Assembly (NCBI GenBank): GCA_951406725.2
Contig: OX597814.1
Span: 19,468,001 to 19,532,000, forward strand
Length of the DNA stretch: 64,000 bases
Direction of reading: 5' to 3'
DNA from: Octopus vulgaris
Lineage: Eukaryota
Shown here: positions 730 to 63,292 of the stretch, one piece after another
Position numbering within the stretch: the first letter of the stretch is position 1
Layout: every line of letters begins with the position of its first letter
Translations under genes and position numbers: made by a program
Notes under the pieces: model-generated
Told to the model about the DNA's origin: nothing
Seen by the model: only the letters and a program-made list of their open reading frames with translations
Database searches by the model: none

Positions 730-920
730 TACGGAGATGTACTCGCATAGCAAGTAATTTGATCTGAGATCGTGTGCTGAAACGAAAACAATTGCAGCGT
801 GGGAGGTGTTTATAAGCCATTTAAGAAACACACAAAAGCCGTTCGATTCACTCCAACATTTAAGTTTAATTTGTCAAAATATTTTCGTCGCTAAAATCCG
901 CGACCTGTTCATGACAAATC
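730..920 (-). mobile_element. PLE-like pseudo-LTR remnant with hammerhead-like fold, between (TA)n tracts
   Basis: Unique 190 bp flanked by (TA)n. Minus strand 870-918 reads TTTGTCA-TGAACA-G-GTCGC(GGATTTTA)GCGAC-GAAA-ATAT-TT-TGACAAA. Confidence 0.55.
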
Positions 921-1166
921 ATATATATATATATATATATATATATATATATATATATATATCATCATCATCATCATTATCATCATCATGTATATATATA
1001 TATATATATATATATATATATATACATACACATACATACGTACGTACATACATACATACATACATACATACATACATACATACATACATACATACATACA
1101 TACATACATACATACATACATACATACATACATACATACATACGTATGTACGTACGTATGTACGTA

Positions 1167-1430
1167 CGTAGTCTGTAAATGCGATAATGAGACTTTTTAG
1201 TAAGAATTCCTATTTATAATTAAACTACTAATCAAATGTGTCTCCTTGAAAATATTTTCTTTGGGAAGTCACACAGCAGTGCAAGAACTCAGAAACCGGA
1301 ATCGCCTGAAGCTGGTCGGTTACAGCTATTTTTACGTTTTCCAACATGCCAAAATGATGTATTTAGAGATGAAATTTCAATCTCGAGAACAGAAAGATGT
1401 CACAGGCGGAAAAGCATCCCTGTTGTCCCT
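1167..1430 (-). mobile_element. Degenerate mariner transposase 3' end with TIR
   Basis: Minus strand gives PCDIFLFSRLKFHL*IHHFGMLENVKIAVTDQLQAIPVSEFLHC..CVTSQRKYFQGD, a mariner C-terminus. The end TA-CGTAGTCTGTAAATGCGATAATGAGAC is TIR-like. Confidence 0.7.
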
Positions 1431-2195
1431 GCGTACCTCCAAACGTTAGAAGACAAGTTTGGATTTCAGGTTCATAAATCTCCAATTAAGGGCTGTGTCG
1501 GTTGAGCAGGTTCTAAGCTGAGTTTTTCCGGTAGTTAGTGAGATTCTTCTGTACTTGTTGCCATCTGATTTGGGTACCTTCTTTAAAATGGTAGTAACTG
1601 TTATTAATCTAAGCACAGGACCTGCAATTTTCGAAGGATCATATAAGTAGTCTATTAAATCTATTCTAGTGCCAGACTGGTACCTTATTATATGAAACCG
1701 GAAGAATGAGAGGCAATATTGCATTTGGCAAAATTTGAGACTTATTTGTAGAGAGACGGAATATCGATTTTGCCAGGTGGCTATCCTTGAAGGTGGTATT
1801 AATAAATGCAATTCTAAAGTAACCCTGATATCTCTTCTCATGCGTGTATGTGTGTATATGTGTGTACACGCATGTTTTCATGCACATTTGTATGCGTACG
1901 CATATGATTTTCTTTGTTCGTTTGTGTATGTTTGTGTGCATTTGGATAGAAAAATAGATCGAAAATTTAACATTTGATACATATATGCATTAATTTTCGC
2001 TTTGTATACTTTACATTTCTTTATCTACGTAATTTGAGATGTTTTCTATATTTTTTTCATCAATAAATGATAGGGTAACAATAAATTGAATTCAATTTAA
2101 TTAAGTTGAACTGAACTGGTTAAAAATCATTTTCTCTCAGTTTCACTTGGAAATAATATATGTTATAAAAATAATGTCCATATTATGTATTAAAT

Positions 2196-2590
2196 AGATA
2201 GATAGATAGATAGATAGATAGATAGATAGATAGATAGATAGATAGATAGATAGATAGATAGATAGATAGATGGGCTGACAGACAGACAGATACACAGTTA
2301 GATAGATGAATCGACAGACAAACAGATAGATAGATAGATAGATAGATAGATAGATAGATAGATAGATAGATAGATAGATAGATAGGTAGGTAGGTAGGTA
2401 GATAGATAGATAGATAGATAGATAGATAGATAGATTGATAGATAGATAGATAGATAGATAGATAGATAGATAGATAGATAGATAGATAGGTAGGTAGTTA
2501 GGTAGGTAGGTAGATAGATAGATAGATAGATAGATAGATAGATAGATAGATAGATAGATAGATAGATAGATAGATAGATAGATAGATAGA
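2196..2590. repeat. (TAGA)n/(TAGG)n compound microsatellite
   Basis: Direct reading. Similar arrays occur near 6795-6880, 30096-30170, 31896-31968, 32508-32610 and 44640-44825. Confidence 0.97.
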
Positions 2591-59542: not shown

Positions 59543-60258
59543 TAGGGTGCGATGAATAAATTGCCACCATTTGATACTTTTAATTTCCTGCATGCGCATA
59601 GTTTGTTTTTGATTTTGTCGACGACATAATATAGTAGGGTCAGTTGGGCACCCCGTCTGTGAGAAATACAGCACCATGACGCAATTCACTCAGTCCGAAA
59701 TTTGTAAACGACATGCTGTACTCCTTGGCATTCTGGCCGGAAGCTCCGACGCAAACATATGGTGAACACACAGAACAACCGTTGGCTTGCCGTGACCTCA
59801 AAGCATGGACCGAGAGTGATAAAAATCAAACATCCAGTCATAGTGTTTGGAGTGATCACTAGTGATAGCAACGTCATGCCTCCCTTCATCTTCCCTCACA
59901 TCTTCACACTCAGCGCGGTGGCCTACATCAAGCGCCTGAAGGAGGTAGTGCTGCCTTGGGTCAAGAGAGTGGCTGCTAAGAGACCCTATGTCTGGCAACA
60001 GTACTCTGCACCATGCAACGCAAGCAAGAGAACCCAGTCATAGCTGTCAGACAATTTCTTCGACCACGTCATCCCTGATATCTGGCCACCTAACTCCCCA
60101 GACTGCAACCCGCTTGATTATTATGTGTGGACGCAGTTGAGTGAGAGACCAGTAAAACTCTTTGCAACAACAAAGTTGAACTGAAGGCAAGGATTATGGT
60201 AAATATATCTGATACAATGAAATGGCAGTGTTATTTTCATTTTTGCGTAATTTAGACG
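59543..60258 (+). mobile_element. Internally deleted DD37D (maT)-type Tc1/mariner element
   Basis: NTQNNRWLA..KHPVIVFGVITSD..MPPFIF..YVWQQYSAPCN...WPPNSPDCNPLDYYVW. Left TIR-like AGGGTGCGATGAATAAATTGCCACC. Confidence 0.85.
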
Positions 60259-61236
60259 CACGAAATGCCGCTAAACATTTTTTTCCTGCGCGCTAACTGT
60301 TCTGCCAGCTCGCCACCTTAACATACGCAAATAATGATTTCAAATTTTGGCACAAGGCCAGAAATTTCGGGGGAGAGAGGAAAGTCGATTACATCGACCC
60401 CAATACTCAACTAGTATTTATTTTATCGACCCCAATACTCAACTAGTATTTATTTTATCGACCCCTAAAGGATGAAAGGCAGAGTCGACCTTGGCAGAAT
60501 TAGAACTCAGAACATGAAGGCGAACGAAATGCCACCAAGTATTCCGCCCAGGTGCTAACGATTCTCCCAGCTCGACGCTTGACATAAACAAATAATGTGC
60601 ATCATTTTCATACGCTACCAATTCGGCTGTCCAGTGACTATTATTATTTTTTGCCCTAACCGTAGCTTTAGTACTTGTGTCGGTTGTCATGTAGAGTTAC
60701 AGGAAATTTCTTCATAAACATTTTTGCCGTAGGGAAATTCGCCGTCAGAAATTTCGTTTTAAATAACTTCATCACGTTTTTTGCTTTAATGTCTGACGTT
60801 GAATAATTAATGATTTAACGATTTTATAAAAGCCTTTTATTATTCCTTTTTATTAAAAAAAAATGTTCATATAATACTCTTTACTATTGTCCATACGGCA
60901 GATTTGTATAAACGGCGAATGGTCCGGACAAGGTCATATAGTAGTAGTAGTAGTAGTAGTAGTAGTAGTAGTAGTAGTAGTAGTAGTAGTAGTAGTAGTA
61001 GTAGTAGTAGTAGTTGTAGTAGTAGTAGTAGTCGTTGTTGTTGTTGTTGTTGTCGTGTAGCTGGTGGCGGTGTAGTAGTGGTGATGGTGGTGGTACCAGA
61101 GAGGGGAAACAATTAGCTAATTGACTTAAAAATAACCAAGAAAATACTCGCAGGCATAAATATCTGTTTCTTTCATAGGCACAAGGCCAGGAATATGATT
61201 GTTGGAGACTATACCGATCCCAGTACTTGGCTTGTA

Positions 61237-61804
61237 TTGGGTTGTCCGGAAAGTTCGTGCCGATTTTTAAAGGAAAGGAAAAGGTCAATAAATACTTGCC
61301 ATTACATTTTTAATCAACCAAATATCAACCATTTTGTTGCACAATGCATCTCCATCTTTCCTTTTTAACTTGAAAATACCCTCTTCCCAGAATTGAGGTG
61401 GTTTCATGCCAAAGAATTCATTAAGGTATCTTTTTACGTCATCCAAGGAATTGGAATTTTTACCATTAAGACTATTCTGCAGAGACCTGAATAAGTGGAA
61501 ATCCGTAGGAGCAATATCTGGTGAATATGGAGGGTGGGGTAACACATCCCAGCCGAGCTGCAGCAATTTTTGTCTGGATCCCAAAGCATCAAGTGCCGAA
61601 AATGAACTTTCTTATCTTCCATTTTAAAGGGTTACAGAATTAACACAGGTTATAGGAACATAAATCTTCTTCCACGAAAAGATAGCTTAAAATGTGTTCT
61701 AAATGGAGGTGTAGTCAAATCCTATTTTCTGAACTCAACCATGTTCTAAAATAAGTCGAAAGGAAAGCTACTATAAATCGGCACGAACTTTCCGGACAAC
61801 CCAA
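61237..61804 (-). mobile_element. Second copy of the internally deleted mariner (568 bp)
   Basis: Same TIRs, TA TSD and deletion junction as 46976-47544. ORF 61285-61584 contains WDVLPHPPYSPDIAPTDFHLFRSLQN. Confidence 0.93.
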
Positions 61805-63134
61805 TAGTTTATTTTAACAAGAATAGAACAAAAAGTTGGCATGAGAGGGATTTGAACTCAGAATCTAAAGAGCTAGAAGAAACAGCGAAAGGAATTTGTC
61901 CGATGCTCCAACGATTCCGTCATACGAATAAATGAATCGACAAAAATAGCTGCAACAAGAATAAGAACAACAAATTAATGTAAAGAATGTGCGTATATAT
62001 ATTTTAGTATAAGTGTGCGTGCGTGCGTGCGTGCGAATGCGCATGTGCTGATTCGTGTTCGTGTGAATGTGTTGCTTTGTACAAATATGTTTGTATACGT
62101 GTCTGTATATGCGTGTAAATAAATGTATGTCTTTTTTTGTATGCTTTATTTCCCCCCTTTTTTGCTCCTTTTTATTTTAAAACATGATCTCGATATATTC
62201 GGCAGCTGCTGATCCTCTTCAAAATTGTTCTGCACATCTTTTTTTTTTTTTTTCACTATATCTCAAGGTTGAATAATGTTGAATAACCAACAACAACAAA
62301 AAAAAAAACGTTGTCGTAAGCATGCACCAATATGGATTTATATCATTCATTCACCATTTCTTCACTACTCGCACTTTCTTTCTCATACACATTGCTTATT
62401 TTTTTTCATTCGTCTTTTCTTTCTAATCTATTCTTTCCTTCTTACATTATTGTACCCACTCACCTTATCGTTCTTTCTCACCTATTCTTTGGTTCTTGAC
62501 TCCATATTTCATTATCTGTTTCTCAATTTACTCTCTCACTCTTTCTCCCCCTCCTCCTCCTCCTCTTCCCTTCTCACTCTCTCTACCTCTAAGTTAGATT
62601 TTTGCTTTCTCTCTCAAATTTCATTAACTCTCTATTTCTCTGTCTGTCTGTCTATCTCTTGCTTCTCCCTCTATATACATATATATTTCATACAACACAC
62701 ACACACACACACACGTATGTACGTTTATGCACATTGACTTCACACATGAAATTACGCATATAATAGGACTTTTGCACCGAAAGGGTCTTCATGCATATGA
62801 AACCTCAGTGCCTATTTCAGTCTGGAATATATTTTCACAAACTGCAAAGTTACATTTTCAAAGTAAAGAAGGGCAACTAGACACAAGTTTCGTACCGAAT
62901 TACACAAATATGCCAGTAGGCACAGGCTTGGTTGCGTGGTTAAGAAACTCGCGTTGAAATTAGATGGTTTCAGAGTGAATTTAGCAAACGAGAACTGTGT
63001 AAGAGCCCGTCATATATATATATATATATATATATATATATATATATATATATATATATATATATATATATATATATATATATATATATATATACATATA
63101 TATAATATATATATATATATATATATATATATAT

Positions 63135-63292
63135 AACGGGAAGCTTTATGAAAATAAACAAAAGACGAAGGCAGGTGGAATACAAACAAACAATTGTATT
63201 AGTATGGCGCTCAGGAATATAAGTAAAACAAGTCTTTTACATTTCGAGCCTACGCTCTTCAACAGAAAGATACACAGAAATGAAACACGGAG
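63135..63292 (-). mobile_element. Second copy of the 43088 PLE-like repeat with hammerhead-like motif (63233-63270)
   Basis: TCTTT-CTGTTGA-A-GAGC(GTAG)GCTC-GAAA-TG-TA-AAAGA. Confidence 0.65.

Follow-up and report, generated by a model that had tools for sequence, protein, structure and literature searches.

The window examined here is a 64,000-nucleotide stretch of the Octopus vulgaris genome (contig OX597814.1, positions 19,468,001 to 19,532,000 of the forward strand), consisting of AT-rich DNA, rich in microsatellites, from a host genome of 2.8 Gb. It contains eleven motifs with the geometry of a minimal hammerhead ribozyme, and the non-canonical cores among them are traits of whole repeat families. 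When the letters of the window were checked, all eleven motif strings, with their stems and palindromes, were present at the positions and on the strands given in a preliminary description of this DNA. The sites correspond to ten insertions of nine repeat families (A–D and F–J), in line with the number of families first estimated, and each lies within an interspersed repeat. Ten of the eleven have a sharp (TA)n junction 102–256 nt downstream of position 17 of the motif, the exception being family J. Two cores (43749 and 56661) are canonical and an extra purine follows position 9 at nine of the eleven sites, both as first described. The extra nucleotide is missing in families G and H, stem II is flanked on either side by extra nucleotides in families B and I, and stem I is weak in family D.

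Nine repeat families and their motifs

Family A is represented by a solo fragment of a pseudo-long terminal repeat (pseudo-LTR) lying in (TA)n at 730..918 (-), with its motif at 870-918. The family core is GUGAACA followed by G, a G3-C8 swap, and the motif has the palindrome AAUAUU and U17 at 877. The core 'TGAACA' read at this site in the preliminary description is damage at the 5' junction of the copy, where G3 has been lost, and is private to that copy. The family B fragment (14087..14428, +) contains a motif at 14171-14218 with core CCGAUGA+A (U4C), an extra G before G12, the palindrome ACAGCUGU and A17 at 14214. Family C (18553..18765, +) is related in sequence to family F; its motif at 18624-18658 has core CCGACGA+A (U4C), palindrome ACGU and U17 at 18654. 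The motifs at 33454 (-) and 34846 (+) belong to the two arms of a single inverted insertion of family D. The left arm (33253..34057, -) has a motif at 33454-33498 with core CUGAUGC+G (A9C) and U17 at 33459, and reaches about 57 nt beyond the end of the right arm, forming a PLE-type tail (PLE, Penelope-like element). The right arm (34132..35034, +) comprises the end of a GIY-YIG open reading frame (ORF; 34132-34299) and then the pseudo-LTR, with a motif at 34846-34890 (+) of the same CUGAUGC+G core (A9C) and U17 at 34885.

Two sites, 43187 and 63233, belong to family F. A solo fragment at 43089..43264 (-) has its motif at 43187-43224, with core CUGUUGA+A (A6U), palindrome ACGU and U17 at 43192. 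The second fragment (63136..63276, -; motif 63233-63270) has the same core (CUGUUGA+A, A6U) and A17 at 63238, and its palindrome AUGU is a private change. Family G (43495..43800, -) has the canonical core CUGAUGA in a motif at 43749-43800, with palindrome ACCGGU and A17 at 43751. Family H (45530..45881, -; motif 45699-45753, C17 at 45707) is old, with approximately 85% identity among copies, family core CUGAYGU (A9U) and family palindrome ACCGGCCGGU. Here too the first reading of the core, 'CTGACGC', described a single copy, as C9 is private to it and the family has U9. The family I fragment (53343..53830, -) contains a motif at 53481-53549 with core UUGACGA+A (U3.G8) and C17 at 53485. In family J (56301..56753, +), also old (approximately 75% identity among copies), a decayed Hydra-type GIY-YIG ORF end is followed by a motif at 56661-56719 with canonical core CUGAAGA+A, palindrome ACCCAGGGU and A17 at 56715.

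A descriptor allowing one core change gave five matches in the window, against zero to two in eight local dinucleotide shuffles and zero to one in the reversed window; it recovers only five of the eleven sites. With a wider descriptor, 1.01 Mb of retrieved loci yielded 221 matches versus 5 on reversed sequence, the former number being inflated because the loci had been retrieved with motif-family queries. Comparison with the Rfam hammerhead model, proposed earlier as a check, gave no match: no Rfam family reached its gathering score in the window and six loci, canonical-core motifs included, and nothing was found up to E 10 for sites 43187 and 43749. An early Rfam scan returned only microsatellite-driven miRNA matches among the 150 of 421 matches listed.

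Short interspersed repeats are abundant in the window (9674-10040, 40220-40517, 63346-63631 and others), and resemble short interspersed nuclear elements. They include a 184-nt two-copy tandem, and PLE fragments often occupy the adjoining (TA)n tails.

Variant cores as family traits

Eight families were retrieved genome-wide using flanking sequence only, with the core excluded from the query and hence without core bias in retrieval. The flank-only search for family F retrieved nothing, because its words are probably too common; this family was sampled first by a core-containing, biased query and subsequently by core-free patterns. Exact patterns that left the core unspecified were also run genome-wide, giving total counts and a hand tally of the first 100 matches; being exact-match counts, these are lower bounds weighted to young copies. 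All of these patterns, read backwards, gave zero matches.

Among flank-retrieved copies spanning the core, GTGAACA is present in 26/27 of family A, C4 in 10/11 of family B and 23/28 of family C, CTGATGC in 30/30 of family D, U9 in 15/18 of family H and U3 in 12/15 of family I, while the core is canonical in 8/11 copies of family G and 19/26 of family J. The core-free patterns agree. Family A has 1,961 genome matches, with GTGAACAG (G3-C8) in 95 of the first 100; family D has 3,470 (C9 in 95 and A9 in 3 of the first 100); family F, with position 7 also free, has 16,712 (U6 in 96 of the first 100); and family H has nine, seven of them with U9. The first 100 matches are more mixed in family B (451 matches; C4 79, U4 20, with A5 in 12), family C (9,940 matches; C4 70, U4 28, A5 3) and family I (257 matches; U3 61, C3 36). 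The U4 and A5 rows of family B match the pair of products that CpG decay would yield from a C4 master. CpG decay as the sole source of U4 was rejected for family C, given 28 U4 rows against 3 with A5; family C likely has a canonical sister subfamily, represented by 28 of its first 100 rows, and family I has one with C3 (36 of the first 100).

In families A, D, F and H the variants are fixed, and in B, C and I they form the majority; they are family traits, not decay. The refuting case named in the preliminary description, canonical consensuses with the variants as decay, fails on these counts. Its proposal that the variant cores are the family consensus holds for seven families, with the reservation that C and I have canonical sisters. 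Judged against a CUGANGA or U3-A8 core, G and J conform and the majority core of A, B, C, D, F, H and I departs, so that strict CUGANGA searches would indeed miss the variants of these seven families. Each family carries one core change or one compensated pair. An older subfamily of D also has C9, together with C17; a tenth family, found in a flank (L195), has U4C directly after a GIY-YIG end; and U4C arose in at least three families.

Family F offers a view of variation within one motif. Position 7 among the 96 U6 rows is T in 42, A in 25, C in 18 and G in 11, and 14,734 of the 16,712 matches retain C3, U4, G5, G8, A9 and the extra A, a pattern like that of a functioning hammerhead core in which U6 is fixed. 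An inactive 'cage' in which U6 would pair with A14/A15.1 was considered for this family and rejected, as the participating position 7 is free. Contigs of four runs placed on an intact family F element (L274) show no variant at or above 5% over positions 2965-2994, from stem II to stem I, and ten variants over the 88 nt of 2995-3082, with many contigs diverging right past stem I. These contigs indicate presence only and, since position 6 of L274 falls at the edge of a skipped repeat, are silent on U6 in other organisms.

The flanks of eight retrieved loci (L025, L032, L113, L124, L173, L188, L195 and L220) contain further motif families beyond the nine of the window. U3-A8 is found in two of these, U3.G8 in one and U4C, following a GIY-YIG end, in another; several are canonical. 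They were drawn from the flanks of retrieved loci and are not a random sample of the genome.

Penelope-like elements and their protein relatives

A PLE origin is established for families A, D, F and J and is likely for B, C, G, H and I, so that the earlier assignment to PLE or retrozyme-like families stands firmly for the first four; for the other five, a search of 29 copies of each out to 1.5 kb found no ORF. The intact family D element L271 comprises a motif, a 1311-codon ORF, an identical motif and a 5' inverted copy. In the intact family F element L274, motif and identical motif enclose a 1106-codon ORF matching Pfam RVT_1 (E 1.5e-7) and, weakly, GIY-YIG. Open ORF pieces of up to 524 codons lie upstream of the family A motif in inverted pairs (L275, L276, L281), and encode a protein 55% identical to that of family D. 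Pfam gave no match for the A and D proteins; reverse transcriptase (RT; YVDD) and GIY-YIG-like motifs were identified in both by eye. The family J motif follows a decayed endonuclease end that resembles, by eye, Hydra-1_Obim in the supplement of PMC8557442. Here and below, statements drawn from PMC8557442, PMC6155905, PMC9901934, PMC11167929, PMC3088659, PMC7151607, PMC3884650 and bioRxiv 10.64898/2026.07.22.740005 refer to the available parts of those sources. Comparison by eye with PMC8557442 also places a CX3-4CxxC linker of the Neptune/Nematis type in A, D and F, and identifies J as Hydra-like.

The layout of endonuclease-bearing PLEs, a single ORF with RT and C-terminal GIY-YIG upstream of the motif, is thus present in A, D, F and J. 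Direct repeats (pseudo-LTRs) are present in L271 and L274, and inverted copies in L271, L275, L276, L281 and at 33253-35034 of the window. Insertion into (TA)n, a sharp 3' end and 5' truncation likewise conform to PLE behavior. Families B, C, G, H and I may be non-autonomous, because of the absence of a nearby ORF, the relatedness of C to F, the tandems of I and the terminal redundancy of G. Family I has units of approximately 510 nt arranged head to tail, each with a motif, in two-unit tandems (L225, L227), most copies being solo. More broadly, ORF-less units of approximately 420-510 nt whose ends are tandem or terminally redundant were seen in L225, L227 and L235 (family I) and L198 (family G), and are candidate non-autonomous PLE derivatives. 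The family D ORF (L271:3009-6941) begins inside the pseudo-LTR, approximately 100 nt past the predicted cut site, and bears a long Asn-rich insert. A non-PLE RT ORF of the long interspersed nuclear element type, in two frames, lies at L272:559-2207 (-) beside a duplicated family I insertion.

A search found 22 protein relatives of A and D. Alignment of A, D and 16 relatives led to the retrieval of 61 loci from metagenome contigs, 28 of which were examined downstream of the ORF end. Fourteen of the 28 have a clear motif 65-405 nt after the ORF end; position pair 3-8 is C3-G8 in nine, U3-A8 in three (L283, L291, L292), A3-U8 in one (L313) and decayed in one (L317). L283, the best match to family A, also has C9. 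A tree of 24 proteins places A and D as sisters (99/100), and puts the U-A, A-U and G-C forms and both C9 cases on separate tips; several forks are unresolved, and family F forms a very long branch that provides only a rough root. All four Watson–Crick forms of the 3-8 pair thus occur in one PLE clade, and the family I majority is a U.G wobble. Across 20 representatives the pair is Watson–Crick in 17, versus 9.9 in partner shuffles that ignore kinship; three imperfect representatives (H, truncated upstream; J, decayed; L313, with a palindrome of the wrong length) were kept and lower the counts. This clade (L283-L321, A and D) is characterized by an extra G following position 9, present in all but one clear motif. 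The published PLE hammerhead consensus has H at that place (PMC4209133).

Possible activity and alternative explanations

The motifs are, in our view with somewhat better than even confidence, minimal type I hammerheads in the terminal repeats of nine families, and likely slow self-cutters. G5, G12, A13, A14, A15.1, U16.1 and H17 are kept in all nine families, and G5 in 20/20 representatives. In hammerhead chemistry G12 acts as the base and the 2'-OH of residue 8 as the acid (PMC6155905), from which it follows that residue 8 may change if its pair with residue 3 is kept, in agreement with what is seen. Selection would keep the fold and the residues of the chemistry and tolerate rate-lowering changes at positions 4, 6 and 9. 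Cleavage would need two copies pairing through the palindrome, perhaps with the protein of the element in addition. Slow cutting would be tolerated because RT copies RNA through the uncut motif, and fast cleavage would destroy the template; we infer that the motifs are selected for slowness, cutting mainly as dimers or with the help of protein. Consistent with this, 0/30 family A copies start at the predicted cut site and 15/30 start 17-23 nt upstream of position 3; the template was therefore uncut RNA. The start site in these copies (L031-L060) resembles a splice acceptor (CTAAC, pyrimidines, TAG) or a transcription start. Several family A copies fold back there at a TGCA palindrome, a fold-back that could explain the inverted 5' copies of PLEs.

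In pairwise mutagenesis, G3-C8 was the sole core change that rescued activity, other mutants of the CUGA turn being weak (PMC9901934). G3-C8 is predicted to be the most active variant, and U4C, A6U and A9C/U are predicted to be weak from published mutagenesis. Family D, combining A9C with a 3-bp stem I and an imperfect palindrome, is likeliest to be inactive. Predicted dimer folds form a double hammerhead for I and F and a partial one for A and B.

Several observations weigh against slow self-cleavage as the common function. The lowest-energy dimer folds predicted for C, D, G, H and J are not hammerheads, and the palindromes of A and D provide almost no predicted duplex energy. Hammerhead mutants of an Anolis PLE were still inserted in vitro, and RNA ends at its cut site were not detected (both PMC11167929, in the available parts); Naiad PLEs proliferate without canonical hammerheads (PMC8557442). 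Among the relatives, four more (L284, L288, L296, L338) have motifs that appear decayed by eye, and the remainder of the 28 have no motif or too little sequence. Part of the invariance seen at G5 and GAAA follows from the way of searching, because the families of this genome were first found through the motif, and the stem covariation counts are circular, because the stems served in selection; of the covariation anticipated in the preliminary description, stems and the 3-8 pair covary across families, with this circularity attached to the stems. Finally, canonical sister subfamilies exist in C and I (28 and 36 of the first 100 rows).

The last point bears on an explanation to which we give appreciable, if lesser, weight: that only canonical and 3-8-swapped cores cleave, U4C, A6U and A9C/U being effectively dead, and that the fold is retained for RNA pairing through the palindrome, RT recognition or a promoter or leader role, or hitchhikes since cleavage is dispensable. 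The low activity of CUGA-turn mutants (PMC9901934), the dispensability of cleavage in vitro (PMC11167929) and the amplification of both canonical and variant subfamilies in C and I are as it would predict, and so is family D, young and intact despite A9C, a weak stem I and an imperfect palindrome. It fits less well with the observation that among family F subfamilies only position 7 varied once A6U was fixed, with the limit of one core change or one compensated pair per family, with the persistence of A9C in two D subfamilies and its recurrence in L283, or with the occurrence of U4C in at least three families, given that this is a viable natural viroid variant (PMC3088659). A more far-reaching proposal, which we regard as tentative and rather doubtful, is a relaxed-core, protein-assisted sub-class of PLE hammerheads in which U4, A6 and A9 are dispensable and A6U, U4C and A9C/U cleave at biologically useful rates as dimers or when bound by protein. 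If it is true, hammerhead counts miss most of these motifs, more than 30,000 exact matches in the octopus genome alone, and the textbook core reduces to the 3-8 pair, G5, G12, A13, A14 and A15.1-U16.1.

Two further explanations carry much less weight. It is quite unlikely that the variants are a fully active, fast new sub-class in which changes at 4, 6 and 9 are offset by the extra nucleotide or by new tertiary contacts. A9C did arise twice independently, both times before an extra G, and variant families reach very high copy number; the extra G, however, is found with A9 across most of the clade, a conserved loop-loop or pseudoknot partner is not evident, canonical-core PLE hammerheads are already slow (PMC4209133), and the copies derive from uncut RNA. 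Least probable of all, to the point of being scarcely credible, is that canonical ancestors decayed copy by copy into the variant cores, or that these cores resemble hammerheads by chance in low-complexity DNA. Decay does account for single-copy details such as the loss of G3 at 870, C9 at 45699 and AUGU at 63233; as a general explanation it is refuted by the family-wide core-free counts. Reversed patterns have zero matches, and the U4/A5 minority of family B (20 and 12 of 100) fits CpG decay away from a C4 master.

For the role of the hammerhead in Penelope elements, the octopus genome offers matched pairs: canonical and variant sister subfamilies in C and I, and the sister families A and D, which differ at 3-8 and 9. 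In families D and F, moreover, both repeats of intact, young elements carry a variant motif. Should the variants cleave, the accepted consensus for the core, along with every search built on it, would be too strict; should they not, highly successful PLE families would have retained the fold without the chemistry, pointing to a second function. The natural G3-C8 swap, to our knowledge reported so far only as a laboratory rescue, gives evolutionary support for the 3-8 tertiary pair.

Comparison with known systems

Small PLE-associated hammerheads with a short palindromic stem III and dimer cleavage were reportedly described by Lünse, Weinberg and Breaker in 2017. A close match in the literature compared here is the minimal hammerhead of metazoan PLEs, which shows weak dimer cleavage (Cervera and de la Peña 2014, PMC4209133). 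Shared with it are the type I topology, short stem I, extra nucleotide between 9 and 10.1, G10.1-C11.1, palindromic stem III, H17 that is often U or A, pseudo-LTR location, and copies that are mostly solo and 5'-truncated. In this respect the preliminary description overstated its case: minimal stem III, palindrome and extra nucleotide all belong to the published PLE consensus. The same holds for U3.G8, U3-A8 and U4C, which are known natural variants; the PMC4209133 set already includes U3-A8 and one U3.G8 core. The cores differ: the PMC4209133 consensus is CUGANGAH, whereas the octopus families have, as majority forms, G3-C8, U4C, A6U, A9C, A9U and C3U, and the relatives add A3-U8. Of all these forms, U3.G8 alone appears in the text of Fig. 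S3 of that study.

Hydra-clade and other PLEs (Craig et al. 2021, PMC8557442) have in common with the octopus families (TA)n targeting, inverted 5' copies, the tail and longer palindromes, and share with B and I the extra nucleotides flanking stem II. An octopus Hydra element with a canonical motif from that study resembles family J, and the motifs in the available part of its File S2, one octopus element among them, all have CUGANGA cores. Poseidon of Anolis, PAc (Frangieh et al. 2024, PMC11167929), is a PLE hammerhead with a likewise uncut RNA template; it cleaved only with the protein of the element, and C3G/G8C partly rescued it. G3-C8 was thus engineered in PAc and is natural in approximately 2,000 young copies of family A; PMC3884650, in its available part, has G3-C8 only as an engineered variant.

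Natural core variants with reduced activity include U3-A8, A6C (phage) and U4C (viroid) (PMC3088659, PMC7151607). The variants of Perreault et al. 2011 and Naghdi et al. 2020 are rare single cases with tertiary contacts, unlike the octopus variants, which are fixed across thousands of copies, in motifs that have no tertiary contacts. A6U, A9C/U, G3-C8 and A3-U8 were not found in the available parts of PMC3088659 and PMC7151607. More generally, no report of natural G3-C8, A3-U8, A6U or A9C/U was found in the open-access literature, an absence that is weak, with Lünse 2017 and figure images outside the comparison. Non-LTR retrozymes (bioRxiv 10.64898/2026.07.22.740005) are similar to family I in its head-to-tail motif units of approximately 510 nt, to family G in its terminal redundancy, and to both in that no ORF was found; in contrast to them, most octopus copies stand alone at scattered places or form inverted pairs. 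Previous publications cover the architecture, extra nucleotide, palindrome, U3-A8, U3.G8 and viroid U4C. What appears to be novel is how broadly the core varies and how these variants are fixed in young, intact families of high copy number, together with the occurrence of four 3-8 pairs in one clade.

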